Source: a virus (lineage: Duplodnaviria; Caudoviricetes). From it: a stretch of DNA of 64,000 bases. Each line of letters opens with the position of its first letter. Position 1 is the first letter of the stretch. The position numbers and the translations under genes were made by a program. Positions 509 to 15,268 of this stretch are shown one piece after another. The notes under the pieces were generated by a model that did no database searches, was not told where the DNA came from, and saw only the letters and a list, made by a program, of their open reading frames with translations. The stretch is from the IMG/VR virus record IMGVR_UViG_3300028805_000094, positions 16,181 through 80,180 of that record. One strand, 5' to 3'.

Positions 509-614
509 GTTTATCACTCCTTTTACTATGGCAAGTATATCATAGTATAGGGAAAAAGTCAATCAGGCGTATTAGATGTTTAACATCTAATATCTTGAAA
601 TGAAAAAAAAGGGC

Positions 615-944
615 TTACGCCCTCTTGTAAGTATTCGGCTTGCCCTCAATCTTTACGACCTCGGACGCCCACAACTTAGTCACGCCATACTGTACGCGAC
701 CGCGCCCGAATCCGTCAGGCAGTTCATCCTTTACCGCGTCATACAGTTCCGCGATAGTCACGGGGGTATCAGACAGCGCACCAATGATGATGTCGTGAAC
801 AGCGGTGTACTCTGCATCCTTCGCGGCTTTCTGCTCAGCACCGCGATTGATGTCAGCATCCAGTTCCGCAAGAATAGCGTCCTTGTTCTCAAAGTCGATG
901 TTAGACAGGGCGGCGGCGATAGCGATCATGGTGTTCTTCTTCAT
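615..944 (-). CDS. winged helix-turn-helix protein, paralog 1 of 4
   Basis: C-terminal VTIAELYDAVKDELPDGFGRGRVQYGVTKL...EGKPNTYK aligns by eye with ORFs 1596, 5747 and 9102 and fits a wHTH helix/wing pattern. Confidence 0.65.
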   Translation of the reverse strand: MKKNTMIAIAAALSNIDFENKDAILAELDADINRGAEQKAAKDAEYTAVHDIIIGALSDTPVTIAELYDAVKDELPDGFGRGRVQYGVTKLWASEVVKIEGKPNTYKRA

Positions 945-1193
945 ACTAATAACCTTTCTGGTTTTTAGGTCTTTTCCTTGACCTCTTTTGTGCCTTTATT
1001 ATATCATAGGTTCAGCGGTCTGTCAAGTGGTTTTTGAAAAAACTTTTTAAGTTTTTTTCAAATTTTCCGTTCTTGGCATCTCGTCCTTGCCCCTCGTGAC
1101 AATTATTATTATACTCAGATTTTAGGAAAAATCAAGTCTTAGTATTAGATGTTAAACATCTAAGTGTTTGAAAAAGAAAATGCCCCGAAGGGC

Positions 1194-1466
1194 TTATTCA
1201 AGATGAACAGTTACTGGAGAAATGTAACAAAAATTTTTAATACACCATTTAACCCAAGTTTCATAATGAGCTTTTGTCCAACCAGATTCTTTTTCATAAA
1301 CTTCCATATTGTCACTATTTACATATTCACTATAATAATCATTTTTATGCGCTATGGCATACTCATAAATAGTTTTTTCTGCAAGTTCTTTGTTCTTAAA
1401 AACTTCTCCATCAAAGCAAGAGAAACGAGAGTCCTCAGAATCCCATTTAACAATTACATATTCCAT
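1194..1466 (-). CDS. hypothetical early protein
   Basis: ATG at 1466 after an AGGATG RBS; stop TAA is followed directly by a GCCC-TTCG-GGGC terminator. Confidence 0.65.
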   Translation of the reverse strand: MEYVIVKWDSEDSRFSCFDGEVFKNKELAEKTIYEYAIAHKNDYYSEYVNSDNMEVYEKESGWTKAHYETWVKWCIKNFCYISPVTVHLE

Positions 1467-1595
1467 TTTTATTTCATCCTTTCTTTTTTCTTTTTGTATA
1501 TGTAGTATATTAGATTTTAGGATAAAAGTCAAGATAATCTATTAGATGTTTAACATCTAATATTGGTAAGAAAAATCGCCCCGAAGGGCGATGGA

Positions 1596-2000
1596 TTAGG
1601 CAAGGCGGTAGTGGTTCGGGCAATTCTTCTTTTCCGTGATAATCACGTTCGGCTTCATCTCGCGCAGAAGAACGGCCTGCACCTTGTTCGCGGTAAAGTT
1701 ATCGGGAAGATTATCCTTTGCGCGCTCGTAAATCTCAACGGCGGTATAATCATCGTTGACGCTCATGGCATCGGTAAGAATCGGGATAACAGTCTCCATC
1801 AGCAGAGCGCGGGCTTTCTGATTCTTCTCACGGCGCACCGCGTTCTCCTTGTCCTTCTGGGCCTGCGACTTCTCCCAACGAGGGGCTTCCGCGCGCTTCT
1901 TCAAAGTATCACGCAGAGCAGTAAGGCGCTCGATAGTCTCGGCGGTCAGGTTGTTGTTGATAGCGTTCTCGATAGCGGTAACATAGGTCATCTTCTTCAT
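1596..2000 (-). CDS. winged helix-turn-helix protein, paralog 2 of 4
   Basis: YTAVEIYERAKDNLPDNFTANKVQAVLLREM...NCPNHYRL; conserved leader; downstream TTCG terminator. Confidence 0.65.
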   Translation of the reverse strand: MKKMTYVTAIENAINNNLTAETIERLTALRDTLKKRAEAPRWEKSQAQKDKENAVRREKNQKARALLMETVIPILTDAMSVNDDYTAVEIYERAKDNLPDNFTANKVQAVLLREMKPNVIITEKKNCPNHYRLA

Positions 2001-2600
2001 AACTTTTATCCTTTCTGGTTTGTGGAGTGTCCTTCTCCTTTGATGGTCTTATTGTATCATAGTTTCGGGAAATTGTCAAGGGTTTTTCAAAAGTTTTTTT
2101 ATGTTTTTTCGGGGACTTGCAAGTGAGGTTTTCGTATTGCGCCTATCCTATCGCATTACTGCGTGTCTGTGCATGGCACTTTATTTTCCTCTCCCCGTGA
2201 AACATCTTGATTATATCATAGTTTTAGGAAAGTGTCAAGTGATTTTTTTATTAAGTTTTTGTTACAAGGGAGAGCAGTCGTTACTTTTTTTACTGACCTC
2301 ACGGGAGCGCCTTTATAGAGGACTCTTCGCTCTCCCTTGGAACAATTATAGTATAGCATAAGAGGATGGAAAAGTCAACCATTTGATATTAGATGTTTAA
2401 CATCTAATATATAAAAGAAGGAAGAATATTATTCTTCCTTCTTATTCAATTTTTCAAGTTCTCTAATTTTTCTAAAACACTCATATACACCATAGACATC
2501 ATTTTCTGCGAGGCACTTTTTCAATTTCTTCTCATAGTAACGGATTGAACGCACTTCACCCTTTTTCATTTCTTTTTATCTCCTCTCTAAGTAAGCTAAG

Positions 2601-2783
2601 TTATTTATATTTATTTCTATTTAGGTCAACATCGCACCAGAGGATGAGGTCTCCGTATGGGCTTATATAAAATTCATCTTCTGGCGTTTCATTCAAATAA
2701 TTATATTCACTTTCAGAATATATGGCGACTTTTGCATCCTGTGGGTACTCTTTAAGTTTTTCTCTTAATTCTTTTACTGTCAT
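2601..2783 (-). CDS. small phage protein of the MTVxELxxxLxxxPxDAxV type
   Basis: Begins MTVKELREKLKEYPQDAKV, a motif common in small phage proteins; tandem with the paralog at 2817-2957. Confidence 0.65.
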   Translation of the reverse strand: MTVKELREKLKEYPQDAKVAIYSESEYNYLNETPEDEFYISPYGDLILWCDVDLNRNKYK

Positions 2784-2816
2784 TTTATTTGGCTCCTCTT
2801 TTATTATATACTTTTT

Positions 2817-2957
2817 TTAACTGATAGAAACAATATTATTATTAGAATTGATTGTAACTTCTTCAACATCAATCAGCGGGCCGCCATCGCCTTGAATCAT
2901 TACCGTAGCGTTAGAGGGAAACTGTTCAAGATACTGAACTAATTCTGTAACTGTCAT
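2817..2957 (-). CDS. small phage protein, MTVxEL paralog
   Basis: Manual translation MTVTELVQYLEQFPSNATVMIQG... (46 aa, below the ORF-track cutoff) with an AGGAG RBS. Confidence 0.6.
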   Translation of the reverse strand: MTVTELVQYLEQFPSNATVMIQGDGGPLIDVEEVTINSNNNIVSIS

Positions 2958-3282
2958 TTTCTTATCTCCTCTCTTGTTGTGGCTTTATTATATCATTTAT
3001 TGTAATCATTGTCAACTATTCTTTTATAAAAATTTTTTTCATCTTCTGACATTTCATCATATCGTTTACGAGCATCTGGATCGGCGTAAGGATAGTAAAT
3101 ATAACCAACGGCAATCAAAGCGGCTTCAAAATCAATCTCATTTTTAATTTGATATTTGTCCTTTTCCATATTTATTTCTCTCCTTTCTTGTTGTGACTGT
3201 ATTATAGCATTTTATGGGAAGAAAGTCAAGAGCGAATAATTAGATGTTAAACATCTAATTTGTTTTTAAAATTAAAGAGGGA

Positions 3283-4035
3283 TTAAAATCCCTCAGTAAA
3301 GTTGTACGTGTCATTTCTTACATACTTTTTACAATACATCCCTTGATGAATAACTTGCCCGTTGATTTTAATGGTATACGGTTTCATCTGCGGTCGTGTA
3401 AGAATTTTTACAACCTTATAATCTGTTCCTTCTTCCGCTCCGCACATAGCAAAGCAATACTGCAAAATTTTTGTTTCAATATCTACATCATACGCGCCCA
3501 TGTGTTCTTCATTAAAATCGGTATCATTCATCAAGAATCTGTAAACATTTTCCGCGCTTCCTGAATAGTTGCCCGAATCAGTAAACAATTCATTATCTTC
3601 ACAAAATTGCTTATACTCAGGGGCGCAAGTGATAAACTCACTGGCATAGCCCCAAATATCGTGAATTGGAATATTTTCAAGGGGGTTATTGCACTTGAAC
3701 CAATCACAATTAAAGGTAAAAACTTTATCATCAAATGCGCTATTATAGGCATAAGCGTCTGTCACTTCATACTGCTTAATATCCCGATACATTGCGCGCA
3801 TAATGTATCCCCATTTGTCCATAACGGCTTTCTTGCTTCTCATAAGCTGGATATATAGAGGGCGCTTTTCCTTATAATAGGCACTCTCAAACAGAGGGAG
3901 ATTATGCCAAACTTGCTCGACAACAAAGTGCTTGCGCGTTACTTCTTCGCCGTCTTTGATAATCTTATAGCCGAGGTCATAGCAGAACGGGCGGTCAAGA
4001 GAGGTAGTTTCAGTATCAAATACAAGGTAGGACAT
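3283..4035 (-). CDS. DEDDh (DnaQ-like) 3'-5' exonuclease, paralog 1
   Basis: Exo I FDTET, Exo II AYNSAFD, Exo III EEHMGAYD. Confidence 0.85.
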   Translation of the reverse strand: MSYLVFDTETTSLDRPFCYDLGYKIIKDGEEVTRKHFVVEQVWHNLPLFESAYYKEKRPLYIQLMRSKKAVMDKWGYIMRAMYRDIKQYEVTDAYAYNSAFDDKVFTFNCDWFKCNNPLENIPIHDIWGYASEFITCAPEYKQFCEDNELFTDSGNYSGSAENVYRFLMNDTDFNEEHMGAYDVDIETKILQYCFAMCGAEEGTDYKVVKILTRPQMKPYTIKINGQVIHQGMYCKKYVRNDTYNFTEGF

Positions 4036-4155
4036 TTTAAAAATTCCTTTCTGGTTTTTTAGTGTTTTCCTTCACTTCATGGCTATATTATACTATGAAT
4101 TAGAAAAAAGTCAATAAGAATATTTAGATGTTAAACATCTAATATAGTTAATAGG

Positions 4156-4509
4156 TTAGTTTGCGCTAACCCATTCATCACTATCATAATCATACTTATA
4201 TAAACCAACTTTATTTGGCGGGAAAATCAGACCCAAATTATCACGAATAAAAGTAATGAAATCATCAGACAATTCGGCATTGATATTTATATATAAACTT
4301 TGCTTATAAGCTAAATTAAACCATGCCATTGTCCCTTCAATGTTAAGGCCATCAGGGCAAAACATTGGACGTTTCATCATATCCAATAAAAGTACATGAT
4401 TCTTGAATTCATCCATTAAGGATACAGCGCGGCTCTCATACTCTTTACACTCTTTGAGAGAATCAAATCTTTCGCCATCATAAGCAATATAAATTACTTC
4501 AACCTTCAT
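4156..4509 (-). CDS. hypothetical phage protein
   Basis: N-terminal YIAYDGERFDSLKECKEYE motif typical of small phage proteins; AGGAG RBS. Confidence 0.7.
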   Translation of the reverse strand: MKVEVIYIAYDGERFDSLKECKEYESRAVSLMDEFKNHVLLLDMMKRPMFCPDGLNIEGTMAWFNLAYKQSLYININAELSDDFITFIRDNLGLIFPPNKVGLYKYDYDSDEWVSAN

Positions 4510-4563
4510 AATAATTAGCTCCTCTGATTTTATATAAGACGTACAACGCCTTATTCTTTCATG

Positions 4564-4872
4564 TTAATTAAGTAAGATAATGCCAGATTTATAGCCTAGA
4601 CCATAAAGATTGTTAAGTGCTTCAAGGCAGTCGCGTTTGTAAGTGAAATAATAGAAGCGGACATTATGCTCAGTAATGTATCCAAGAAAGTTACAATCAT
4701 AATCTAATATAGAAGAATCTTCTGTTCTGCCCGCGAAGGCAATCCTTTTCCCGCGCTTACCGTTTTCAATTCTAATCATGTAATTACGCTTGCCATTAAC
4801 AATCTTGCTCCCTAACTGCTCAGTAACTATCACATCATTAAGCGCGCGGCCCATTTCTTTTAAAGTCATCAT
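4564..4872 (-). CDS. hypothetical protein, paralog of 11626-11904
   Basis: Shares NYMIRI and (F/W)xYYxYKxD motifs with ORF 11626; start moved to the ATG at 4872 behind the RBS. Confidence 0.7.
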   Translation of the reverse strand: MMTLKEMGRALNDVIVTEQLGSKIVNGKRNYMIRIENGKRGKRIAFAGRTEDSSILDYDCNFLGYITEHNVRFYYFTYKRDCLEALNNLYGLGYKSGIILLN

Positions 4873-5000
4873 TTTTTTATCCCTCTTTCTTTTGTTATTG
4901 GTTTCTTTTGATGGTGTTATTATATTACAGATTAGGGGAAAATGCAAGAGTTAGAGTTAGATGTTTAACATCTAATATTTGCTAAAAGAAAAGAGAGGGC

Positions 5001-5291
5001 TTACGCCTTCTCCTTCGCCCTCTCTTTCTCGGCTTTCTTCTCTGCCTTGATGCGCTTATCTTCCTGCCACGCTGCCGCGGCTTCGTAGGGGTCAAACGCG
5101 GGAGAAATCTTTGTTGCCTTGTTTGCCTTAGTCTTTACGGAAATCTCCGTCCAAAACTCTTCGCCCTCTACATTCTGCAAGATGGCGAAAGAGTTATCAG
5201 CAAACTGAACGGCTTCGTTCTCTTCGAGGATGGACATAATCAGGTTCAGGGTGTTCGCGCGGGCAACGTTCTTTCTTTCGGTAGTAGTCAT
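5001..5291 (-). CDS. protein with Lys/Ala/Glu-rich helical tail, paralog of 8277-8684
   Basis: Start at 5291 behind the AAACCAGAAAGG leader; FAI..EGEEFWT..FDPYEAA..KAEKK matches FALP..EGNERYV..YDGYKAA..KAAKK. Confidence 0.75.
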   Translation of the reverse strand: MTTTERKNVARANTLNLIMSILEENEAVQFADNSFAILQNVEGEEFWTEISVKTKANKATKISPAFDPYEAAAAWQEDKRIKAEKKAEKERAKEKA

Positions 5292-5585
5292 ATTATTTTG
5301 TCCTTTCTGGTTTAATGGGTTTTCCTTCCCTTTGATGATGTTATTATAGCATGGTTTCGGGAGATTGTCAAGCACTTTTTTGAGAAATTTGCAACTTTTT
5401 TCGTAGCAGGAAAAGTTGCGGAAACCTGTCCGCTTCATGCCCTGAGACGACAGGCAATTCACGGCAACCCTTCTACTTATCATCTCCTTCGGTTCGTCCC
5501 TTCATCTGACATACATAGTATACTATAATTTTTGAAGAAAGTCAATTATTGAAATTAGATGTTAAACATCTAATTTATTTTATGC

Positions 5586-5611
5586 AAAAAAGAAAACCAC
5601 CCGAAGGCGGT
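5586..5611 (-). terminator. intrinsic terminator directly after the tRNA-like RNA
   Basis: Minus strand ACCGCC-TTCG-GGTGGT followed by TTTCTTTTTT, 2 nt after the CCA. Confidence 0.85.
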
Positions 5612-5613
5612 AA

Positions 5614-5731
5614 TGGTGGAGAGTGGGAGAATTGAACTCCATCCCTCATGGGACGACCCCCTTTTGCATGGGTCTACGCAATCATCTTTCGATTTACCGC
5701 GGTGGCTCCCCTGATGCCACGTTCACTCCCC
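5614..5731 (-). ncRNA. 118-nt tRNA/tmRNA-like RNA with G3:U70 alanine identity and encoded CCA
   Basis: 5' GGGGAGT pairs with ACTCTCC, followed by ACCA; T-arm GGAG-TTCAATT-CTCC; four internal hairpins instead of a canonical cloverleaf; terminator downstream. Confidence 0.8.
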
Positions 5732-5746
5732 ATAAAAGGGAAGGGC

Positions 5747-6142
5747 TTACGCCCCTTCCTTCAAGCGGTAGGTATTCGCCTTGCCCTTAGTCTCGATAAT
5801 GTCCAGTTCGTCACGCATCTCACGCAGGAGAACGTTCTGAACCTTCGCAACCGAGAAGTCCTCGGGCAGTTCATTCTGAACCATTCCAAACAGTTCCTTC
5901 ACGGTTACACCCTGCAACGTGTGGGACAGACCCTCGCGCAGGATGGGCGCAACCTTAGCAACGAGTTCGGCACGAGCGGCGGCAGTCTTAGCCTTGCGCG
6001 CAGAGTTCGCGGCTTCCTTCTGCTCAGGCGTGCGCGTGCGCTTCTGGTCAAGCTGGGCAATCATGGCTTTAATCACGGTCTTAGCATCGGTATCATCAGC
6101 CATGGTAGAGAGGGCGAGGGTGAGAGCATCTTTCTTAGTCAT
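5747..6142 (-). CDS. winged helix-turn-helix protein, paralog 3 of 4
   Basis: VTVKELFGMVQNELPEDFSVAKVQNVLLREM...KGKANTYRL. Confidence 0.65.
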   Translation of the reverse strand: MTKKDALTLALSTMADDTDAKTVIKAMIAQLDQKRTRTPEQKEAANSARKAKTAAARAELVAKVAPILREGLSHTLQGVTVKELFGMVQNELPEDFSVAKVQNVLLREMRDELDIIETKGKANTYRLKEGA

Positions 6143-6400
6143 ATCATTTACCTTTCTGGTTTGTTGAGGTTTTCCTTCCTCTGTTGTGTCCTTATTTTAT
6201 CATGGACTTTGAATTTTGTCAAGAGGTTTTTCAAACTTTTTTTTGATTTTTTTCAATCATGGCGTTTCCTCTTGCTTGTGTCATGCCGGTGTGCTGTTCG
6301 CTCCTGACATTGTTTATTATACTCATTTTAGAGAAAAGTGCAAGAGGAGGGATTAGATGTTTAACATCTAACTATATAACAGGCACGAAGCCTGTCAGTC

Positions 6401-6586
6401 TTAATAATATTTTGTAGTATGGATATATTTCCCGTCTTGTGTAAAGATTAGTTTACGGGACGCTAATTCTAATGCGGGATAAATTGGAGCAGGCGTGTCG
6501 TGTTCTTCATCATCAATATATTGATCTTCGTATTCAGTTTCTTTTGCATCCCATAAAATACTTTTAAGAATTTCATAATCAGTCAT
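6401..6586 (-). CDS. small acidic hypothetical protein
   Basis: 61-aa ORF with a D/E-rich centre, last in a co-directional cluster. Confidence 0.6.
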   Translation of the reverse strand: MTDYEILKSILWDAKETEYEDQYIDDEEHDTPAPIYPALELASRKLIFTQDGKYIHTTKYY

Positions 6587-6591
6587 GATTT

Positions 6592-6747
6592 TTATTTCCT
6601 TTCATTATTAAGAACTTTTAATTCTTCATAGGAAGTCTTTTTTATAACTCGTCTAATGGTCGAAGTATAAAGACCGCAATGATTAAGCAAAAAACAGATA
6701 AGACAATTGATAATACGATCTCGAATATCAAGATAAATACTATACAT
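6592..6747 (-). CDS. small hypothetical protein
   Basis: ATG at 6747 behind an AGGAG RBS. Confidence 0.55.
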   Translation of the reverse strand: MYSIYLDIRDRIINCLICFLLNHCGLYTSTIRRVIKKTSYEELKVLNNERK

Positions 6748-6766
6748 ATTTTTCTCTCCTTTGCTT

Positions 6767-7021
6767 TTACCATCCAGCACAGCCACAACAAATATCGCAA
6801 GTCTCTATAATAATACGAGGATCCTTATATAATTCTTTTAATATTTTATCCTTAGTATAACATTGAAGCTCTTTAAAAGGCTCTCCGTAGTCAAAGAAAT
6901 TACTATGATTCTCATCATCAAAGGCACAAGCTTTAAGATACAAATATTGTCCATTTTCTGATTCCCAATAAGAAATATTTTCTTTCTGCAAATAATTTTT
7001 AATTTCTTTAAATTTCATCAT
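6767..7021 (-). CDS. hypothetical protein with C-terminal CxxCCGC
   Basis: 84-aa ORF behind the palindrome promoter at 7090. Confidence 0.65.
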   Translation of the reverse strand: MMKFKEIKNYLQKENISYWESENGQYLYLKACAFDDENHSNFFDYGEPFKELQCYTKDKILKELYKDPRIIIETCDICCGCAGW

Positions 7022-7118
7022 TTTTTTTATCTCCTTTGCTTTTGTGATGTAAGTATATCATAATTGTTTTAGGATTGCAATATCAGATATTAGATGTTTA
7101 ACATCTAATAAAAAATGC

Positions 7119-7343
7119 TCACTCCTCAACGGGTGAGCCAATGATTTCATAATAGCAGTTATCATCAGACGTATACAATTCAACGCCAGCAGGAGTTTTA
7201 TTTGTTTCAGCAACGAAAGTCCAATTGTTATAAATCGCATTTTCTGCTGCTTTGATGCCTTGTTTCTTTGAAGCATAGACACCAACGAGATAGGTATCAA
7301 CCGCGTCATGTTCAAGGACTACCCACACTTTTTTATTCTTCAT
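7119..7343 (-). CDS. hypothetical phage protein
   Basis: VWVV...LVGVYASKKQG motif typical of small phage proteins; has its own palindrome promoter (7413). Confidence 0.7.
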   Translation of the reverse strand: MKNKKVWVVLEHDAVDTYLVGVYASKKQGIKAAENAIYNNWTFVAETNKTPAGVELYTSDDNCYYEIIGSPVEE

Positions 7344-7459
7344 AATCTTATTCTCCTTTTCAATTTGTAATTGTATTATAGCATACTTTTAAGAAAAGTC
7401 AAGCCACAGATATTAGATGTTTAACATCTAATTTCTAAAATAAGAAAACAAGAGGTATA

Positions 7460-8143
7460 TTACCTCTTGTTATATAATACTCGTTCCATCTTCTTATGTG
7501 TGCGGTATGCCTTGGCGACAATTTCTTTCTCAATCATAACGTCTTCAAGCGCTGTATGACTTTCTTCAAAAGTCAAATCATTGATAATGAATCTATACAG
7601 AACTTCGGCAGTCATGCGCGGGCGCGGCGTCTTGTGCGCGGTCATAAATCCATTTTTATTACAGAACTTAATATATGATGGAGTTTTTGCAAAAGTTTTC
7701 GCCATCTTCATACTATCCCAGACTTCGATATTGGGGAGGGCGCGCACGTAATCAAGGCCAGTCAAATAACGGACTGTTGTATTTAATGCATCAATATCAA
7801 ATGCTGCATTGTGCGCGCAGATAGCAATGATATTATATTTGCGGCAGAGTTTCGCAATCTCATTCATAATCTCAAAGAAACTGCGCGCGGTGCGGCGATT
7901 GTTTGCTAAATCATCATAATATTGCGGCAACTTATTAGCATAATAGGCGCTCTGCATCTTTTCGCGCTCACCGAAAAAGATTTCACTAACTACGTTAGAA
8001 GATGAATAAATCACTTCGCCAGTAGAGGGATAGACAACTGCATAGCCAATATCATAGGTCAGATTATTACCACGGGTAACTGCATCGCAGGGCGTAATGT
8101 TACAAGTCTCAGTATCCAGTACCATAATTGCGTGCTTCTTCAT
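7460..8143 (-). CDS. DEDDh (DnaQ-like) 3'-5' exonuclease, paralog 2
   Basis: Exo I LDTET, Exo II AHNAAFD, Exo III ESHTALED. Confidence 0.88.
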   Translation of the reverse strand: MKKHAIMVLDTETCNITPCDAVTRGNNLTYDIGYAVVYPSTGEVIYSSSNVVSEIFFGEREKMQSAYYANKLPQYYDDLANNRRTARSFFEIMNEIAKLCRKYNIIAICAHNAAFDIDALNTTVRYLTGLDYVRALPNIEVWDSMKMAKTFAKTPSYIKFCNKNGFMTAHKTPRPRMTAEVLYRFIINDLTFEESHTALEDVMIEKEIVAKAYRTHKKMERVLYNKR

Positions 8144-8276
8144 TCCTTTATTGCCTTTCTGGTTTGTAGTGTTGTTCCTTCACTTCATGGGTAGAGTATA
8201 TCATAAAGTTATGGGAAAAGCAAGTCTTGATGTTAGATGTTAAACATCTAATCTTATGAAAATGAAATAACGGTTG

Positions 8277-8684
8277 TTACACCGTTACTTCTCTGTCAAG
8301 GTACTGGTTACTGTCATCGGCTTCGGCCGCGGCCTTCTTAGTCGCGCGCAGGGCGCGCTTCTGTTCGCGCAACCTTGCGGCGGCTTCCTTCTTCTCTGCG
8401 CTTGCGGCCTTCTTCGCGGCCTTTTCCTTGCATTCTGCTTCGTAGTCCTCTGCGGCCTTGTAACCATCGTAGGGAGTATAACCGCCGTTACCTGTCCGAG
8501 TGCCACGAGGGATAGCAATCTTTACGGTTACATAACGCTCATTACCTTCTGCATCGAGGAGGGGAAGCGCGAACTCACCCGCGCCAGTCTGCGGAATAGC
8601 AACGTCATACTTCTGGCCGAGAAAATCACGAACGGCTTCATAGATTTCAGAACGGAGAGCATTTTCAAGAGCGGCTTTAGTCAT
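8277..8684 (-). CDS. protein with Lys/Ala/Glu-rich helical tail, paralog of 5001-5291
   Basis: Shared motifs with ORF 5001; conserved leader; TTGACA promoter without palindrome. Confidence 0.75.
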   Translation of the reverse strand: MTKAALENALRSEIYEAVRDFLGQKYDVAIPQTGAGEFALPLLDAEGNERYVTVKIAIPRGTRTGNGGYTPYDGYKAAEDYEAECKEKAAKKAASAEKKEAAARLREQKRALRATKKAAAEADDSNQYLDREVTV

Positions 8685-8902
8685 AATTTTTGCCTTTCTG
8701 GTTTTTTAATGTTTTCCTTCATTTGTTGATGTAATTATAGCATACAGTTTCGGGATTGTCAAGAGGTTATTTTGATTTTTTTTATTTTTTTTATTTCTTA
8801 ACCTTTTGAACAATTATATTATAACATAATTTCAGAAAAAAGTCAATAGTTTTTTCTTACAAAAATCGCGTGTTATTTTTGTGCTATTTTTATGCCGGTG
8901 CC

Positions 8903-8983
8903 TCACCCTCTAAATGAGAGAAAAATGCCGTAAAGGATGAACGCGATTACAAAAGAAAGGATTCCTTGCCCGATGGTAGCCAT
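8903..8983 (-). CDS. 26-aa hydrophobic single-pass membrane peptide
   Basis: Manual translation MATIGQGILSFVIAFILYGIFLSFRG with an AGAGGA RBS, the only ORF behind the palindrome promoter at 9059. Confidence 0.55.
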   Translation of the reverse strand: MATIGQGILSFVIAFILYGIFLSFRG

Positions 8984-9101
8984 ATTATATTCCTCTTTTC
9001 TTTTTTCTTTTTGTAATTGTATTATACACTATACAAGAATAAAAGTCAATATGAAGTATTAGATGTTTAACATCTAATCTTTCTTACTAAAAAGAAGAGG
9101 A

Positions 9102-9437
9102 TTAGCTCCTCTTCTTGTATACATAAACCTTGTCATTAGACTTGCGGTCGATTACATCGCTCCAATAATGGTTAAGGCCATAACTCAGTTTGGAACGGCT
9201 GAAATTTTCGGGGAGAGCATCCTTCACGCTTTCATAAAGCTCTGCCGCGGTGACTTCTTCATCGGTCATATTTGCGAGAACAACGGCCTTCGCGCGCTCG
9301 TAAAGCGCCTTATTCACGGCGGCCTTTTCCGCACCCTTGTTAAGTTCTGCTTCAAGTTCGGCCTTGATTTCATCAAGATTCGTCAGAGTAGCGCCATTCA
9401 GATAGTTGACGAGAGACTGCATAGTGGACTTCTTCAT
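9102..9437 (-). CDS. winged helix-turn-helix protein, paralog 4 of 4
   Basis: VTAAELYESVKDALPENFSRSKLSYGLNHYW...DKVYVYK; closest by eye to ORF 615. Confidence 0.65.
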   Translation of the reverse strand: MKKSTMQSLVNYLNGATLTNLDEIKAELEAELNKGAEKAAVNKALYERAKAVVLANMTDEEVTAAELYESVKDALPENFSRSKLSYGLNHYWSDVIDRKSNDKVYVYKKRS

Positions 9438-9514
9438 AATAAAACCCTTTCTGGTTTGTAAGAGTTTTCCTTCTCTTGTTTACATTATTATTATATCACA
9501 GGATTTTGTTTTTG

Positions 9515-9706
9515 TCAAGTATGATCTCGTAAAAAATTGTGAAGTTCATACAGGATTCGTGTTAAGTCTGCATACAATTGATTTTCTTCTTCTGCGTCTG
9601 CATCTTCAATATCTTTAACCCATTCATTGACTAAGTTATAAAAGTCAATAATCTTCTGACGGTCTTGCCCTTCCATAGTTACTGTGATAGTCTTTTCAAT
9701 CTTCAT
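9515..9706 (-). CDS. small acidic hypothetical protein
   Basis: 63-aa ORF with RBS and palindrome promoter at 9774. Confidence 0.6.
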   Translation of the reverse strand: MKIEKTITVTMEGQDRQKIIDFYNLVNEWVKDIEDADAEEENQLYADLTRILYELHNFLRDHT

Positions 9707-9816
9707 ATCTTTTAGCTCCTTTCTTTTATGGCTATATTATAATACAAGAAAAGAGAAAAGTCAACTTTTAGAATTAGATGTTAAACATCTAATCCTTAAA
9801 AATAAAAAAACGGCAT

Positions 9817-10323
9817 TCAGGAAGAATGCCGCATAAATTCATTACAAGCGTAATCAATAACGATGCCAATGTTATTTTTATAACCAATATTCCACTCGTG
9901 TAAATCTTCCACATTATTATATACATATTCTTCTTCATCAATGCTCCAATTGGTCATTCTATCTGAACCGATTCCGCCAATTCTGGGCATAATGTAGAAC
10001 GCGCGCCCATGGCATACAAACTTTGTGATTTTAGCAAAGAGATATTCATATCCATCATCTTCCGCGCGCTGATAAAATTCGCATTCATCTTCACATCCGC
10101 CAAAATATTGAATTTTTGTGGGATTATAGTCAATTTTGACTACATAGTCAGACGTAATCAGAACAACACGGCAAGCGCCAGATTCTACACGTACATGACG
10201 TTTTTTTGCTTCATTATAACGCTTAATTGCTTTTTCAAAATCATCGGGCATATAACAATTTTTAAGATACTCTGCAATCTGCTGAATAAACTTCTTTGCG
10301 CGGACTTCATAACTTGTTTTCAT
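9817..10323 (-). CDS. minimal protein-kinase-like (phosphotransferase) fold protein
   Basis: SGACRVV (Gly loop), VVK (ATP lysine), E in the helix-C position, DLHEWN (catalytic loop), IDYA (DFG-like). Confidence 0.7.
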   Translation of the reverse strand: MKTSYEVRAKKFIQQIAEYLKNCYMPDDFEKAIKRYNEAKKRHVRVESGACRVVLITSDYVVKIDYNPTKIQYFGGCEDECEFYQRAEDDGYEYLFAKITKFVCHGRAFYIMPRIGGIGSDRMTNWSIDEEEYVYNNVEDLHEWNIGYKNNIGIVIDYACNEFMRHSS

Positions 10324-10438
10324 ATTAGCGCCCTTCTTTCTTTTAGTTGCCTACATTATAACACGTTTCGGGAAAAAGTCAACAGAGAGACTTAGATGTT
10401 AAACATCTAAGTTTTTAAAAATGAAATAAAGGGTGTTA

Positions 10439-10876
10439 TTAACCCTTTATTAAATTTTGTAATACTTCCATAATATCGCAAGGTTCATAACTTTCGCCGC
10501 CCCAATTTGTGCGGTTTTGCGCTTCATCATCAAAGAGGATGCCATCACCGCAAGTTTCCCATTTATTGATGCCGTATTTTGTAATTTTTATATAATTCCA
10601 CTCAACACTCGGCAGATGCTTTTCCAACCAGCTTCTTTTTGTTTCAGCAACTATTTCATTGTAGCTTTCCGTCCCGCTCTTGCTTAGCCAGCTAATAATC
10701 CCAATCTCATAGCCAGCTCGTTGAAGCGTGTTCAGCTTGCGGGCAAGCTGTGACAGATTGACCAGCGGGCGCGCGACTGCGTAGGGCGTGGGGTCTGATG
10801 CGATAAGCATATCAAGCCAGTTATTCACGCCGTAGAGGTCTGCGATAGTGCCGTCCATATCAAACCATATCTTCAT
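10439..10876 (-). CDS. HAD-superfamily hydrolase, 5'(3')-deoxyribonucleotidase-like
   Basis: Motif I FDMDGT, motif II ISW(S/T), motif IV LFDD. Confidence 0.82.
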   Translation of the reverse strand: MKIWFDMDGTIADLYGVNNWLDMLIASDPTPYAVARPLVNLSQLARKLNTLQRAGYEIGIISWLSKSGTESYNEIVAETKRSWLEKHLPSVEWNYIKITKYGINKWETCGDGILFDDEAQNRTNWGGESYEPCDIMEVLQNLIKG

Positions 10877-10984
10877 TTTCTTTTTATTTCCTTTCCCTTT
10901 GATGGTGATAGTATAGCATAGTAAAAGGGAAAAGTCAACGGAAGGGATTAGATGTTAAACATCTAATATTATTAGGGAGTGGAA

Positions 10985-11107
10985 TTACTCCCACCCTGTT
11001 TCATACTCATTATTATGTTCTTCAAGGTATTTATAGAAGTTTTCCCAATCTTCTTCCAATTCCTTTAATTCTTCCTGCGAATAACCTTCCCAAATATCAT
11101 CTGACAT
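10985..11107 (-). CDS. 40-aa highly acidic peptide
   Basis: Manual translation MSDDIWEGYSQEELKELEEDWENFYKYLEEHNNEYETGWE; AGGAG RBS; terminator overlapping the stop. Confidence 0.65.
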   Translation of the reverse strand: MSDDIWEGYSQEELKELEEDWENFYKYLEEHNNEYETGWE

Positions 11108-11155
11108 ATTATATATCTCCTTTTTTGTTGTTTGGTTCTTTAATTTTAAAAATTG

Positions 11156-11503
11156 TCAATTATTATTAGAAAAGAACTCACGAATGTTAAACCATTTATC
11201 TTCTATTAGATTACCAATTTCATCAATGGTTCCGCCCCATTCGTTTGTCTTGCATCGTACATACTTGCCTTTCAAATCTTCCCAATATTCTACGCCAACT
11301 GTATTCATAATTTTCATTATAGCTACAAGTCCATTACCAGAATTAGCTTTAAATTCTTTAGCGCCTAAATATCCATGACCGATACAATATCCGCCATAAC
11401 AACAACCCCAGCCATCACCTTCAAGTGTTAAATCAAAAGTTAAGCAACCATGATCGGCCATAGAAATACGCGTATCTATAATTTTTGCGTTCTCAATATT
11501 CAT
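11156..11503 (-). CDS. conserved phage hypothetical protein
   Basis: ENAKI...DHGCLT...GYLG...WEDLKGKYVR pattern seen in Firmicutes phage proteins. Confidence 0.7.
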   Translation of the reverse strand: MNIENAKIIDTRISMADHGCLTFDLTLEGDGWGCCYGGYCIGHGYLGAKEFKANSGNGLVAIMKIMNTVGVEYWEDLKGKYVRCKTNEWGGTIDEIGNLIEDKWFNIREFFSNNN

Positions 11504-11625
11504 ATTTATCGCTCCTTTTTTCGGTAGTTTCTTTCTTTATCGTGATTAGAGTATACACTATAATAAGGAAAAAGTCAACAAGAGAAATTAGATGTTTAAC
11601 ATCTAAGACAAAAACGGCTTAGGGA

Positions 11626-11904
11626 TTATTCAATCCCTAAGTTATTCAAAATTTGAAGCGCTTCTTTATAATCTTTCTTGTACGTGTAGTAAAACCAACG
11701 TGTATGATTTTTACAGATAATAGAAAGATATTCACCATTGAAAATTTTTCCGCGTCCGAAGCCGCCTGCGTAGGTGATTTTATAATGTCCGTTTCTCATG
11801 TCAATTCTAATCATGTAATTATTACGCCCGTCAACTTTTGATACTAATTCACTGAGACTAGTTTCTTCAATCAATTCCGCGCACATTTCAAGAATTTTAT
11901 TCAT
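11626..11904 (-). CDS. hypothetical protein, paralog of 4564-4872
   Basis: NYMIRI and YYTYKKD motifs. Confidence 0.7.
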   Translation of the reverse strand: MNKILEMCAELIEETSLSELVSKVDGRNNYMIRIDMRNGHYKITYAGGFGRGKIFNGEYLSIICKNHTRWFYYTYKKDYKEALQILNNLGIE

Positions 11905-12276
11905 GGTTTTTATTTCCTTTCTTTTGATGGCGTAAGTATAACATAATGGGAAAAAGAAGTCAAGAGAAAAAGTTAGATGTTAAACATCTAATTTAAAATG
12001 AAATTCGGGATAAATTAAAATTATATATGTTATAGAATAGTAAAAATGAAATAAAATGAAATTACAGGATTATAATGAAATAATAGTTATATATAAGAAA
12101 AGATATGAAACAAAATGAAATTCTGCATTTTTCTTTTACTTTTTCTTTACTTATATTATATAATATAAAATAAAAATTGTCAATATTTATCATTAGATGT
12201 TTAACATCTAATGTTATTTATTAAGTTTGTTATAAAAATAACAATACCGTTTAATAAAAAAGAAATAGGCTTTCGC

Positions 12277-12612
12277 CTATTTCCAAATGGTTTTTCCGTT
12301 CTGAGTGAAGAACGTTTGATTCCTGTCAACCTTTTTCCTGAGATAGGAAGGAATTTTCTTCGGCCCGCCGTATATCGCAACCAATTCCCTATAAGTTGTT
12401 ACATACATTGTAATAATTGTATCTTTTCTTTCATTCTTTACAATCGTGATTCCTGTATCTGTTACGCAAGTATAAGTGCCTTGTTTGCCCTCTCTAATCT
12501 GCGCGGGACTGCGGAAATATTTCTCAATAATTATTTGACCGATTCCAATTTCATTAACGATATGGGAAACTCTGTTTGCTCTTTGTACTTCGCAATGATA
12601 ACTCATTTTCAT
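12277..12612 (-). CDS. hypothetical protein (possible small RNase fold); the only early gene seen ending in TAG
   Basis: SYH...R..R N-terminus and ...IITMY strand; the TAG lies inside a terminator hairpin at 12263-12282. Confidence 0.65.
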   Translation of the reverse strand: MKMSYHCEVQRANRVSHIVNEIGIGQIIIEKYFRSPAQIREGKQGTYTCVTDTGITIVKNERKDTIITMYVTTYRELVAIYGGPKKIPSYLRKKVDRNQTFFTQNGKTIWK

Positions 12613-12746
12613 TTTGTAATACCAACCTTTCTTTTGTTGTTTGGTTCTTTCTTTTTACGATTGTATTATATAATGAAATGGGAATTTTGTCAACGGATAG
12701 AATTAGATGTTAAACATCTAATTTGGGAATGAAATGAAATGCGGTT

Positions 12747-12995
12747 TCACCGCATTTCAGTAATTGCCATTTTTTCATTTTCCATTTTGATTTCATCGGA
12801 AATGTATACACGGTCTTTGAAAAAGAATGCGATAACTTCGCCTGTTTCACTATTCATAACGTCTGTTTCAATACCGCGATTTTCAAACATAGAACGTGCG
12901 GTATAGATTGCGCCGAAAGCCGTTTCAAAAGTAAAACCGTAATCATAAACCTTGTGATTGAGATAGCAAGTGATTTCGTACTTCATGTTTTTCAT
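12747..12995 (-). CDS. hypothetical protein
   Basis: ORF with RBS, palindrome promoter at 13060 and a stop-overlapping terminator. Confidence 0.65.
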   Translation of the reverse strand: MKNMKYEITCYLNHKVYDYGFTFETAFGAIYTARSMFENRGIETDVMNSETGEVIAFFFKDRVYISDEIKMENEKMAITEMR

Positions 12996-13360
12996 TTCCT
13001 TTCTTTTTCTTTTGTGATTGTATTATATTCTATTATGGGATAAAAGTCAAGTATTTTTTTTAGATGTTAAACATCTAATTTGAAAATGAAATGAGAGAAT
13101 TAGTATTCTCTCATTTCAACGCTATATTTTAGTCCCCATTCTTGTGCAAGTTTACTAGATTCTGCGAACTTTCGGGATTTTTCTGCCTCTTCAAAAGTTG
13201 CGAACGGCCCATCAAAAACAAAATCAAATTCGTCAATTACATACCATACGGACATTTTTATTTCTCCTTTATTTGATAAGTTAATTATATTATACTTTTA
13301 GGATTTTGTCAATAGGCATTTTTATATATTTAATATTTAAAATATAATATGAAATTCCAA

Positions 13361-13564
13361 TTATTTAGTGTTATAACTAAATAAGTAACGTACTCCTACA
13401 CATATTATAAAGAAAGTCCAATAATTGAAATGCGCGGCATTGAAAGTATCTGCAAGAACGCGATTCCATACAATAGTAAAAAGTGCGGCAGGAAAGGCTA
13501 CATGTGCGAGAAAATTACCAATAATATGAGCGATAATTTTGCAACATTTTTCTTTATTTTCCAT
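13361..13564 (-). CDS. small membrane protein (two hydrophobic segments)
   Basis: Start at 13564 behind an AGGAG RBS; hydrophobic IIAHIIGNFLAHVAFPAALFTIVW and YWTFFIICVGVRYLF. Confidence 0.6.
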   Translation of the reverse strand: MENKEKCCKIIAHIIGNFLAHVAFPAALFTIVWNRVLADTFNAAHFNYWTFFIICVGVRYLFSYNTK

Positions 13565-13692
13565 AACTAATTCTCCTTTTGGTTTTAGGACTTTTTTCTT
13601 ATTCTTTATTGTGATTATATTATAATAGTTTAGAAATGAAATGTCAAGTTTTATTTTAGATGTTAAACATCTAAAATAAAATAAAAGAGGGA

Positions 13693-13887
13693 TTACTCCC
13701 TCGTATCTCTCCACTCCCAAGGAAAAAGAAGTTGCGTATGAAATGGCCTACCATAGTCAATCATGTTAAAAAACTCTGCGATTTTGCTGGTGATAAATAC
13801 GTGCCACGGAACGGCGGAAATATACGTTTCTCCATCATCATATACTTCAATGATTGCCTTACGATACGCCATAATTTTCCGCAACAT
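13693..13887 (-). CDS. hypothetical protein
   Basis: AGGAG RBS; stop inside the terminator GAGGGAG-TAA-TCCCTC. Confidence 0.65.
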   Translation of the reverse strand: MLRKIMAYRKAIIEVYDDGETYISAVPWHVFITSKIAEFFNMIDYGRPFHTQLLFPWEWRDTRE

Positions 13888-14163
13888 TCTTAATCTCCTT
13901 TTGGTTTTTAAAAGTTATCCTTCTTTTATTTTGTAACTATATTATATAAGAGTAATTGAAAGAAGTCAATAGATAAGAATAGATGTTAAACATCTAATAT
14001 TATACAAGTCTTTTATATCTTTAATTAAATAATAATAATCGCCTTGTCTTGTCGTGCGCTTATACCTTATTGCTATCTATTTAACCTTCTTATCCTATCA
14101 AAGGTTTTATCTATTACTTAACAATTAAGTTACGTCATAGCATTGTATGCTATGACGTATTAC

Positions 14164-14403
14164 TTACCTATACTTCTCCATGCTCCGAACCATTCCATAG
14201 ATAAAGTCATTCAATTCTTCTTCTGTATACACTATCATATCATTGATTGATTCATTGTGTATAACAATCTCATAGACACGACTGTAAGTGTACTTTCTCC
14301 AATGGCGCGCCCGCATCTCTCGTGCGATAGCATCTTCAATGAACTCCCACATCGGTGTACCATAGTAGATAGCGGTGTAAACATTTGATAGCTTAATCTT
14401 CAT
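14164..14403 (-). CDS. hypothetical protein
   Basis: 79-aa ORF with an AGGAG RBS and a TTGACA promoter near 14462. Confidence 0.6.
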   Translation of the reverse strand: MKIKLSNVYTAIYYGTPMWEFIEDAIAREMRARHWRKYTYSRVYEIVIHNESINDMIVYTEEELNDFIYGMVRSMEKYR

Positions 14404-14464
14404 GGCGTTTAGCTCCTTTGCTTTTTCTTCTTCGCTTAGATTATATCACATTTTGTAGCTTGTG

Positions 14465-14662
14465 TCAATACTTTTTCTCGCTTGCCAGCTTGCTTTTTAG
14501 TTGTAGCTTGCCAGCTTGCTTCCAGCTCGCCTGCGCAATAGGCGGCCCTGTGGTGCGCTGTTTGGCCTTCGCTTGCCCGCGCCTGCCCTGCGCTGTTCGG
14601 TGGCGCGCCCATGGGCTTCCACACAATTTGTATGTGATGCTATTTGTGTGTATCATCTTCAT
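14465..14662 (-). CDS. basic 65-aa ORF in a GC-rich repeat segment (may instead be non-coding)
   Basis: GAGG RBS and palindrome promoter at 14734, but atypically GC-rich with direct repeats. Confidence 0.35.
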   Translation of the reverse strand: MKMIHTNSITYKLCGSPWARHRTAQGRRGQAKAKQRTTGPPIAQASWKQAGKLQLKSKLASEKKY

Positions 14663-14800
14663 CTTTTTGCCCTCTTTTCGTCTCTTTTCATAGTCTATTA
14701 TACACTTTTTTACGCAAAAGTCAACGAGGGAAGTTAGATGTTAAACATCTAATATATACATTTTGTGTGTGTTAGTTAGATAAAACTAACATATGTGTGT

Positions 14801-14959: not shown

Positions 14960-15268
14960 TCAGCAATAGACCAGAGACATGTCAGACCATTTAAGAATGC
15001 TGATTTGATTGCATTTTCTTCCAATATCGAGCGCTTCCTTTTTAGTGCTAACACGCTTACTTTTATCAATATAATAAATACCGTCACTGTACCAGACGCC
15101 ACAAGTGCCATTATATTGCTTTATGGCTTTCATAGCTTCCAGCGGCGTTTTGCACTCTTTGCCCTCCGTAGCGACTTGATAACCGCTCTTATACGTTATA
15201 GCTTTCCCATTTTTCAAGGTCAATCCGTCATTATTTTCCAGCTTGCGAATCGTGCGAATATTAATCAT
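14960..15268 (-). CDS. hypothetical protein with distant SAM-lyase-like motif layout
   Basis: GVW...YYID.S...A..IG...NQISI pattern; stop-overlapping terminator. Confidence 0.5.
   Translation of the reverse strand: MINIRTIRKLENNDGLTLKNGKAITYKSGYQVATEGKECKTPLEAMKAIKQYNGTCGVWYSDGIYYIDKSKRVSTKKEALDIGRKCNQISILKWSDMSLVYC

Follow-up and report, generated by a model that had tools for sequence, protein, structure and literature searches.

A promoter-phased 19-bp palindrome and a candidate PD-(D/E)XK partner protein in the cassette-built early region of a TAG-recoded phage

Introduction

Why should a phage repeat one short palindrome, almost letter for letter, along its early genes? This question is raised by the Caudoviricetes record IMGVR_UViG_3300028805_000094 of IMG/VR, which comprises 80,180 bp with a CheckV completeness of about 46% and of which bases 16181-80180 were analyzed (a stretch of 64,000 nt, in the following referred to as the window). 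Between window positions 572 and 14752, the 19-bp palindrome TTAGATGTTWAACATCTAA recurs next to predicted promoters of small genes, and a gene encoding a 189-aa protein predicted to adopt the PD-(D/E)XK (restriction-endonuclease) fold lies at the head of this array. As judged from sequence, the best reading, with a probability of roughly 0.6, is a two-part module composed of a predicted symmetric site and a phage protein as its candidate partner. Tests of this pair would bear on the staging of early transcription on the host polymerase by large lytic phages and on the physical mediator of modular cassette exchange.

Copy number, conservation and variants of the palindrome

In total, 24 matches to TTAGATGTTWAACATCTAA were detected in the window, 23 of them perfect and one carrying a single mismatch (position 13979), at a chance expectation of 0.01 in shuffled sequence. 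Another three copies immediately outside the left end of the window (record positions 15119, 15439 and 16028) bring the whole record to 27 copies, and neither 9-nt half-site was found in the record outside a full palindrome. On the plus strand, the central base of the window copies is A in 14 and T in 10 cases. A first-pass annotation had reported the copy number, the central bases, a spacing of mostly 9 nt (10 or 8 nt in the remaining copies) to a minus-strand -35 box and the confinement of the palindrome to this block; the counts were reproduced, and the confinement holds for the whole record. The scan of relatives that it had proposed recovered the same 19-mer on about 24 further IMG/VR contigs (up to 189 kb); exact copies number 382, and 613 are counted if no more than two mismatches are allowed.

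The DNA identity of cassettes shared between relatives is 65-80%. Within the palindrome, the arms (positions 1-8 and 12-19) are close to 100% invariant, positions 9 and 11 are conserved at 82-92% and the centre is A or T. The 9-nt linker between palindrome and -35 contains almost zero information and is followed by the -35, a Firmicute-type TRTG -16 element and the -10. Since the arms are invariant while the cassettes have diverged to this extent and the linker is uninformative, the palindromes are elements under separate maintenance and do not represent copies of a single long repeat. Searching the literature for the half-site strings yielded unrelated primer matches only.

Variants of the site were surveyed around family 4, which is present in 192 related viral contigs with or without palindromes and of which 80 loci were fetched. 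Palindrome arrays of the 8-3-8 layout occur in only about 16 of these 80 loci. At least four arm types were distinguished, namely TTAGATGT (canonical), TTGGATGT, TTAGACGT and CYTTATGT, each of which is changed symmetrically in both arms. Moreover, positions 9 and 11 also change symmetrically between lineages.

Helical phasing of palindromes and predicted promoters

A unit of the array, read on the minus strand, consists of a hairpin with T-run, the palindrome, 9 nt, the -35 hexamer TTGAC(T/A), 16-17 nt, the -10 hexamer TATA(A/C)T, a ribosome-binding site (RBS) and one to three small open reading frames (ORFs); most units represent a single small gene between palindromes. The spacing to the minus-strand -35 is 9 nt in 19-20 of the window copies, 10 nt in three and 8 nt in one or two, the copy at 6353 being ambiguous. 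Applying a strict test, a hairpin with T-run was found just upstream of 17 of the 24 window copies. These terminators are separate from the palindromes and all differ in sequence.

Among the 613 copies, 454 adjoin a strong promoter of the form TTGAC(A/T)-17-TATA(A/C)T with TRTG -16, at a spacing of 9 nt (382 copies), 8 nt (41) or 10 nt (25). When promoters up to 45 nt from the palindrome were accepted, the spacing on canonical contigs was 8-10 nt in 445 cases, 17-21 nt in 11, 28-31 nt in 19 and 39-40 nt in six. For the TTAGACGT lineage, the corresponding classes were 8-10 nt (31), 18-20 nt (25), 28-30 nt (4) and 39 nt (1), and the intervals between the classes are nearly empty in both lineages. 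Steps of approximately 9, 19, 29 and 39 nt place the site on one helix face relative to the -35, with palindrome centres near -54, -64, -74 and -84. One-face steps of about 10 bp represent the geometry of class-I-type transcription factors. Furthermore, palindromes serve promoters on either side, and divergent copies, coded 'B', serve both at the same spacing; use from either or both sides fits a symmetric reader.

Replacement of UP elements in a second promoter class

Loci lacking palindromes include very close relatives, which share families 0, 1, 2, 3, 4, 6, 9, 10 and 12 at high scores. These relatives feature classical A/T-tract UP elements in the -40 to -60 zone. For orthologous cassettes (families 1, 3, 6, 9 and 10), 19 palindrome promoters versus one UP promoter were counted in palindrome genomes, and 66 UP and 27 other promoters in palindrome-less genomes. 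Both promoter classes also occur within the block itself. About one third of its promoters belong to a separate UP-element class without palindrome, for which reason the earlier proposal of a regulator switching the whole array is not supported.

In canonical arrays, the two classes differ in their core elements. The -35 of the palindrome class is TTGACA in 48% and TTGACT in 46% of cases, as compared to 87% TTGACA in the palindrome-less class; the -10 is TATAAT in 33% and TATACT in 58%, as compared to 71% TATAAT; and an upstream A/T tract accompanies 18% of the former and 76% of the latter. Based on these comparisons, the palindrome module is interpreted as a replacement of the UP element, within a clade of TAG-recoded phages, at a predicted promoter class that is kept slightly below consensus.

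Some palindrome promoters are followed within 100-160 nt by a UP-type promoter, with no credible ORF in between (window 1095-1030, 2343-2240, 5510-5375 and 6310-6225, minus strand). These stretches start with a similar ATTGTCA/ATGTCAG...GAGG motif, which is present in palindrome-less relatives too, and may represent small RNAs or leaders. Other relatives (among L072, L082, L091, L117, L137 and L140) carry TTGTAACA-like repeats in the same promoter zone, approximately 9 nt from a TTGACT -35; a ATGTTAAT ... TTTAAC module abutting the -35 was also observed among these loci. Across this phage group, it seems to be common for lineages to possess upstream elements of their own.

A PD-(D/E)XK protein encoded at the head of the array

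The structure model of the 189-aa protein encoded by the first gene of the head operon reached a pLDDT of 77.8, with core values above 88. About 25 of its top 30 VIA-align neighbours are PD-(D/E)XK enzymes, with Z-scores of 7.2 for ThaI (root-mean-square deviation (rmsd) 6.8, 161 aligned), 6.0 for MspI, 5.8 for HhaI and 5.7 for Hje (rmsd 2.9, 93 aligned). The top Foldseek matches were NhoI, Eco15I and ThaI, and further fold neighbours from the two structure searches were HinP1I, PvuII, Hjc, RecU and the homing endonuclease I-Ssp6803I. In an alignment of the family, whose members are 19-30% identical, D69, E78-x-K80 and G83 are invariant, and the D...E-x-K motif is also present in homologues c34 and c40. 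The modelled protein is assigned to the PD-(D/E)XK enzymes at the level of the fold, strengthened by the motif; nuclease activity is putative. Sequence searches against Pfam, PHROGs and PDB returned no matches and no named family, and no methyltransferase partner was seen. In public data, the family comprises at least 180 clusters, without Pfam domain or name.

Occurrence of this gene follows that of the palindrome. Homologues are encoded in every palindrome lineage, and all 21 distinct proteins originate from palindrome sources. Searches of 68 palindrome-less loci and of 35 whole records lacking the palindrome (at least 95% complete in 13 cases) detected no homologue. In palindrome-less relatives, the same slot is occupied by unrelated proteins (hhalign probability 0.1%). 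For a prospective test, four homologues on long Logan/ENA contigs were selected by protein alone, three of which had enough downstream sequence. All three contigs harbor a palindrome array that starts within about 1.5 kb and features the arm type predicted by the protein subfamily. Members of the 220-aa subfamily go with CYTTATGT arms and those of the 186-aa subfamily with TTAGATGT arms.

In about 25 relatives, the nuclease-fold gene is followed after 40-100 nt by an ORF of 50-95 aa, without detectable homology between subfamilies. This ORF was rejected as a controller-protein-like partner, since it is conserved in position only. By analogy, the pattern resembles that of inhibitor/immunity partners of nucleases.

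Cassette turnover at the palindromes

Arrays were coded as strings of protein families separated by palindromes. These strings have a loose backbone order that is interrupted by single-cassette differences. In genome pairs of at least 85% identity, 21% of the homology-block ends inside arrays lie exactly on a palindrome edge (1.8% expected, approximately 12-fold enrichment) and 54% within -30 to +50 nt of a palindrome (16% expected). At single-cassette indels, two homology blocks overlap on one palindrome.

Unidirectional arrays are broken by a 'B' palindrome (divergent promoters) beside an 'x' palindrome (terminators on both sides), and such an adjoining pair is interpreted as the footprint of one inverted cassette between two palindromes. 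Over all arrays, 18 'B' and 35 'x' copies were counted. An example is provided by the record itself at 15119-15457, left of the window (L001/L002:1501-1519), where a 76-aa family 19 cassette is inverted relative to the whole array. Its promoter lies on the plus strand, 9 nt from the palindrome at record position 15119, and the palindrome at 15439 stands between two convergent terminators without a promoter. Family 10 is palindrome-bounded in 14 of 14 genomes, at differing positions and in both orientations; family 24 likewise occupies differing positions in both orientations among arrays. No recent inversion was found between near-identical genomes, and family 10 cassettes of opposite orientation have diverged too far to be aligned as nucleotide sequences.

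The first-pass annotation had suspected that the repeats seed cassette gain or loss, and the enriched breakpoints, single-cassette indels, inverted cassettes and relocated families 10 and 24 agree with this view. The palindromes are interpreted as the crossover points of a cassette-built early region, for which passive 19-bp identity and stimulation by an enzyme are both possible.

Interpretation and alternative explanations

In the preferred reading, the 19-mer would be an 8-3-8 double-stranded-DNA site for a phage-encoded protein of two-fold symmetry. The lineage-specific module would comprise the PD-(D/E)XK gene at the array head and one site copy before each cassette, the site occupying the place of the A/T-tract UP element of sister phages. 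Most likely, the bound protein would act on the host sigma-A RNA polymerase in a class-I-like geometry. UP-element promoters, including that of the nuclease-fold gene, would fire first, and palindrome promoters would constitute a second early class. Moreover, the invariant 19 bp at each cassette boundary would give rise to crossovers between co-infecting relatives, and these in turn to gains, losses, replacements and inversions of single cassettes. The helical quantisation, the symmetric arm variants and the free central bases accord with the dimer site tied to promoter geometry that had been suggested at first pass. That the nuclease-fold protein itself reads the palindrome has, on the comparative data, slightly less than an even chance. 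Activation is somewhat favoured over shut-off because the palindrome replaces the UP element at slightly sub-consensus promoters.

Several points weigh against this reading. Every promoter considered here is a consensus prediction of the sigma-A type, and the 10-bp steps could partly result from insertion of whole UP subsites of about 10 bp and not from direct protein-polymerase contact. Approximately 35 copies lie between convergent terminators without a promoter, so that a promoter is not required for a copy to persist. Regarding the protein, the structural matches are middling (Z 5-7.2, Foldseek E of at least 0.1) for a model built from only nine sequences, and the phyletic tests draw on related genomes that are not fully independent. 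The TTAGATGT arm is common to nuclease-fold proteins that are about 20% identical and fall into at least four deep clades; covariation is modest. Deep clades sharing one arm are awkward for a sequence-specific reader and would fit better to a structure-specific enzyme, alternatively to such an enzyme combined with a separate sequence reader. Furthermore, the invariant catalytic triad suggests an active nuclease, and nucleases normally need no helical phasing with a promoter.

The same geometry could also carry the opposite sign. As a shut-off operator or insulator, the site would bind a phage dimer between a terminator and the next promoter and silence the early cassettes later; in a further form, it would be a bidirectional read-through block, the symmetric analogue of mycobacteriophage stoperators. 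A code-switching phage must silence its early genes, phages with multi-copy intergenic repressor sites are known (PMC9283540), the site always stands between terminator and next promoter, and promoter-less copies between convergent terminators persist. However, the centre near -54 does not overlap the core promoter, loss of the UP element and a weaker -10 would be needless at promoters that are merely repressed, sister phages drive the same genes from strong UP promoters, and a roadblock needs no helical phasing. Shut-off is considered unlikely, albeit worth keeping in view. Quite unlikely is a recombination or nuclease target only, be it a homing site or a site of the promoter/stem-loop (PeSL) kind, which the enzyme would cut or resolve, perhaps as a cruciform, for cassette exchange or recombination-dependent replication. 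The palindrome would then play no role in transcription and its spacing would be inherited from an ancestral unit. The concentration of breakpoints at palindrome edges, the inverted and relocated cassettes, the strict co-occurrence with a protein keeping the catalytic D...E-x-K, fold neighbours including junction resolvases and I-Ssp6803I, and a deeply diverged protein facing an identical site are all in line with such a target. The 9/19/29/39-nt classes with empty intervals nevertheless argue for selection on helical phase and not for inheritance, the linker is randomised in sequence but kept in length, UP elements are systematically replaced so that two promoter classes differ, and 27 double-strand cuts in its own genome would be costly for the phage.

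Other readers of the palindrome are conceivable. The first-pass annotation had pointed to the winged-helix proteins, i.e., the four family 0 paralogues, and their fold was confirmed by a model with a pLDDT of 93.3 (helices 64-74 and 81-91, hairpin 96-108) whose structural neighbours are Fur, Zalpha, CodY, MarR, ArsR-type proteins and HlyU (E of at least 0.04). The recognition-helix region is fairly conserved among the paralogues, and all four genes stand behind UP-type promoters, which presumably fire earliest. The presence/absence test, however, failed: a whole-record search detected no family 0 homologue in three complete genomes with variant arrays (G033, G035 and G041), two to four strong copies are present in palindrome-less close relatives (G001, G003, G006, G007 and G017), and no association with palindromes was found within +/-10 kb of the anchor gene. 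On this phyletic pattern, family 0 was rejected as a dedicated reader, and reading by the four paralogues is improbable. Binding of a host transcription factor to an operator borrowed by the phage is very improbable. The core GT-N3-AC resembles generic GntR-type operators and the reader in the phage is a candidate only, but no host regulon emerged from a 19-mer scan of 185,579 species genomes, in which multi-copy matches were confined to phage-like contigs of 2-4 kb from metagenome-assembled genomes (MAGs) and single matches stayed at chance level (about nine expected); moreover, the arm sequence changes between lineages together with the phage gene. Hardly credible is a function as RNA hairpin, i.e., as terminator, processing site or stability element. 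A 7-bp stem with a 3-nt loop can form, but the predicted fold is weak (-5.8 kcal/mol) and lacks a U tract, the palindrome follows the real terminators, precedes the predicted start and would mostly not be transcribed, loop positions 9 and 11 still change symmetrically between lineages, and the palindrome functions in both orientations.

Families 4 and 5, which are small, basic and near-universal, were rejected as readers, with blank PDB profile searches and unnamed or uninformative protein-atlas neighbours; family 4 is present in all relatives, with palindromes or not, and does not qualify as a specific reader. In an unbiased screen for association that covered 33 families, relatedness acted as a confounder. 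Families 18, 22 and 29 track the palindromes and were dismissed because they are absent from the record itself.

Beyond the preferred two-part module, an integron-like platform is doubtful but can be envisaged. The PD-(D/E)XK protein encoded at the head would recognise the palindrome at each cassette boundary and nick, cut or resolve it, whereby cassettes would be captured, lost, relocated and inverted among co-infecting relatives; once bound, this protein would also set promoter activity from a fixed helical face. If this were true, expression and shuffling of genes would be coupled through a single protein and a single site.

Genomic context and features of the window

The source is a large TAG-recoded, distantly SPbeta-like, rumen-type phage of anaerobic Bacillota, and the palindrome block represents its standard-code early region. 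Placement of the lineage as distantly SPbeta-like follows from SPbeta-type YonB, YonD_N and YonG_N domains in virion genes adjoining the arrays of relatives (L153-L155). In the plus-strand block 16425-53582, which contains the late/structural genes, long ORFs appear only with TAG as sense codon, and the longest TAG-readthrough ORF comprises 4,917 codons (window 30996-45746, plus strand). RBS-supported genes of the early block stop at TAA (26), TGA (10) and TAG (1). No tRNAs were found within the window. Late-gene stop-codon recoding is already known in gut phages (bioRxiv 10.1101/2021.08.26.457843; PMC10607447), and promoter palindromes are mentioned in neither of these two papers.

To the right of the block, a dUTPase (window 54748-55557), an NrdG-like radical-SAM activase (57609-58091) and the anaerobic ribonucleotide reductase NrdD (58443-61244, minus strand) are encoded, the latter as two ORFs with a GIY-YIG homing-endonuclease gene (59393-60256) in between. 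Comparison of the early block and the late region with GenBank phages by megablast yielded zero nucleotide matches. Pfam and PHROGs searches with 40 early, left-arm and right-arm proteins were mostly blank and named NT5C, a weak DUF6958, dUTPase, the split NrdD, GIY-YIG and a phosphoribosyl-pyrophosphate (PRPP)-related domain. A 127-aa protein (record 9673-10056) has a weak HTH_36/DnaD-like match. Recoded late proteins gave a weak Sipho_tail match in Pfam and nothing else, and an Rfam scan of the early block gave no credible match. The cargo of the early cassettes includes almost nothing with recognisable function; its role in host takeover is an assumption.

The palindrome-bearing MAG contigs (L062-L066 and L070) contain one to five copies each and belong to bins of Acutalibacteraceae, Oscillospiraceae, Clostridium and Bacillota. 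They are probably mis-binned fragments of these phages and hint at the clade of the host. Both array ends also harbor clusters of a second palindrome family, TATAAC-N4-GTTATA. Besides the copies listed in Table 1, it occurs at record positions 14411, 15038, 15052 and 16126 (L058); past the last unit, the -35 of the promoter at record position 15034 is closely preceded by two overlapping copies. This family may mark the array boundary or serve another regulator, perhaps the winged-helix proteins, as operator.

Table 1. Predicted promoters, palindromes and selected genes of the early block (window positions; for promoters, the -35 and -10 hexamers are given with their spacing in nt)
Feature	Position	Strand	Remark
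Palindrome 572-590, 9 nt, TTGACT-17-TATACT	534..590	-	
Palindrome 1145-1163, 9 nt, TTGATT-16-TATAAT	1108..1163	-	
Palindrome 1542-1560, 9 nt, TTGACT-17-TATACT	1504..1560	-	
Palindrome 2389-2407, 10 nt, TTGACT-17-TATACT	2350..2407	-	
Palindrome 3240-3258, 10 nt, TTGACT-17-TATAAT	3201..3258	-	drives family 1 gene 3283-4035
Palindrome 4124-4142, 9 nt, TTGACT-16-TATAAT	4087..4142	-	
Palindrome 4957-4975, 9 nt, TTGCAT-17-TATAAT	4919..4975	-	
Palindrome 5555-5573, 9 nt, TTGACT-17-TATACT	5517..5573	-	
Palindrome 6353-6371, 8 or 9 nt, weak -35 TTGCAC-17-TATAAT	6315..6371	-	
Palindrome 7090-7108, 9 nt, TTGCAA-17-TATACT	7052..7108	-	
Palindrome 7413-7431, 10 nt, TTGACT-16-TATAAT	7375..7431	-	
Palindrome 8233-8251, 9 nt, TTGCTT-17-TATACT	8195..8251	-	
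Palindrome 9059-9077, 9 nt, TTGACT-17-TATAAT	9021..9077	-	
Palindrome 9774-9792, 9 nt, TTGACT-17-TATAAT	9736..9792	-	
Palindrome 10392-10410, 9 nt, TTGACT-16-TATAAT	10355..10410	-	drives family 10 gene 9817-10323
Palindrome 10948-10966, 9 nt, TTGACT-17-TATACT	10910..10966	-	drives NT5C-like family 3 gene 10439-10876
Palindrome 11588-11606, 9 nt, TTGACT-17-TATACT	11550..11606	-	
Palindrome 11973-11991, 9 nt, TTGACT-17-TATACT	11935..11991	-	
Palindrome 12193-12211, 9 nt, TTGACA-17-TATAAT	12155..12211	-	
Palindrome 12703-12721, 9 nt, TTGACA-17-TATAAT	12665..12721	-	drives family 5 gene 12277-12612
Palindrome 13060-13078, 9 nt, TTGACT-17-TATAAT	13022..13078	-	
Palindrome 13656-13674, 8 nt, TTGACA-17-TATAAT	13619..13674	-	
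Palindrome 13979-13997 (sole imperfect copy), 9 nt, TTGACT-17-TATAAT	13941..13997	-	
Palindrome 14734-14752 (first of the array), 9 nt, TTGACT-16-TATAAT	14697..14752	-	
UP-element promoter without palindrome, -35 at 1021-1026	998..1052	-	drives winged-helix family 0 gene 615-944
UP-element promoter, -35 at 2074-2079	2051..2105	-	drives family 0 gene 1596-2000
UP-element promoter, -35 at 5366-5371	5343..5397	-	drives family 2 gene 5001-5291
UP-element promoter, -35 at 6217-6222	6194..6248	-	drives family 0 gene 5747-6142
Two tandem palindrome-less promoters, -35 at 8762 and 8846	8734..8872	-	drive family 2 gene 8277-8684
Palindrome-less promoter, -35 at 9513-9518	9490..9544	-	drives family 0 gene 9102-9437
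Winged-helix family 0 paralogue, 109 aa	615..944	-	other paralogues 1596-2000, 5747-6142, 9102-9437
Second palindrome ATAACTTAAGTTAT, four copies	14804-14899	.	between head operon and first canonical palindrome
Family 4 gene, 102 aa, last of head operon	14960..15268	-	
71-aa ORF directly after nuclease-fold gene	15306..15521	-	position conserved in relatives, sequence not
189-aa PD-(D/E)XK (restriction-endonuclease-fold) protein, first gene of head operon	15581..16150	-	candidate partner of the palindrome
Head-operon promoter: A-tract UP element, TTGACT-17-TAAGAT	16197..16275	-	no palindrome

Significance and comparison with known systems

In large phage genomes, no other part is as plastic and as poorly understood as the early ORFan regions. 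Sister phages with the same early genes behind a UP or a palindrome promoter constitute a clean natural experiment, and one protein together with one 19-bp site represents a directly testable pair. With its phasing, four co-existing site variants and hundreds of copies, the array would also lend itself to the study of specificity changes in a regulon-wide operator and the protein belonging to it. Site and protein could possibly also serve as orthogonal parts for Gram-positive synthetic biology.

Two-fold symmetric sites upstream of the -35, stepping by about 10 bp on one face near the C-terminal domain of the polymerase alpha subunit, are familiar from class I activators such as CRP, whose sites are located at -61.5, -71.5 and -82.5. 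In comparison, the palindrome centres near -54, -64, -74 and -84 are roughly a quarter turn off, the candidate binder is without a helix-turn-helix (HTH), and dozens of identical copies are packed into one 16-kb block.

The PeSL cassettes of RB49/phi1 and other T4-type phages, which their own authors liken to integrons, resemble the present array in their dense series of strong early promoters of the sigma-70 type, which together with terminators flank small ORFans within a hyperplastic region (PMC2839356, PMC4122927). Moreover, the repeated regulatory motif is in both cases the place where relatives differ by indels and replacements. The stem-loop of PeSLs, however, is a terminator or attenuator that varies in sequence as well as in its placement with respect to the promoter (five subclasses), and crossovers occur throughout the promoter region. 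The palindrome described here is an invariant non-terminator that is helically phased with the -35, has symmetric variants and is accompanied by a dedicated nuclease-fold gene, in an SPbeta-like, TAG-recoded lineage with a Bacillota-type host and not in a T4-like myovirus. The PeSL analogy drawn at first pass was retained for the mode of shuffling and given up for the stem-loop as terminator. The parallel to Aca operators, drawn likewise, did not survive: Aca inverted repeats overlap the core promoter, whereas the site here is centred near -54 and ends 9 nt upstream of the -35, and no HTH gene conserved with the palindrome, as required by the Aca model, was found among the compared loci and genomes.

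Stoperators of Cluster A mycobacteriophages (PMC9283540) resemble the array in that more than 20 copies of a site for a phage protein occupy short intergenic spaces and in that site and protein change together between lineages. They are 13-bp asymmetric sites of a monomeric HTH repressor, act in an orientation-dependent manner and stop elongation in lysogeny, whereas the sites here are symmetric, occur in both orientations and are promoter-phased. Identity with stoperators was rejected, as a perfect palindrome serving either or both sides has no defined orientation of the kind they depend on.

In integrons, an enzyme gene likewise heads a cassette array, and each cassette is bounded by an imperfectly conserved palindromic site. 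Integrons employ a tyrosine recombinase, single-stranded folded attC sites and promoterless cassettes behind one common promoter. Each cassette of the present array possesses its own promoter and terminator, and the head gene encodes a protein with a nuclease fold and without a recombinase fold; identity with integrons was rejected on these grounds. Finally, the protein encoded at the head shares its fold neighbours and the invariant D...E-x-K core with PD-(D/E)XK enzymes such as type II restriction enzymes, I-Ssp6803I and Hjc/RecU. These enzymes act as symmetric oligomers on palindromic or four-way DNA, whereas the putative targets of the candidate described here are promoter-phased sites in the genome of the phage itself.

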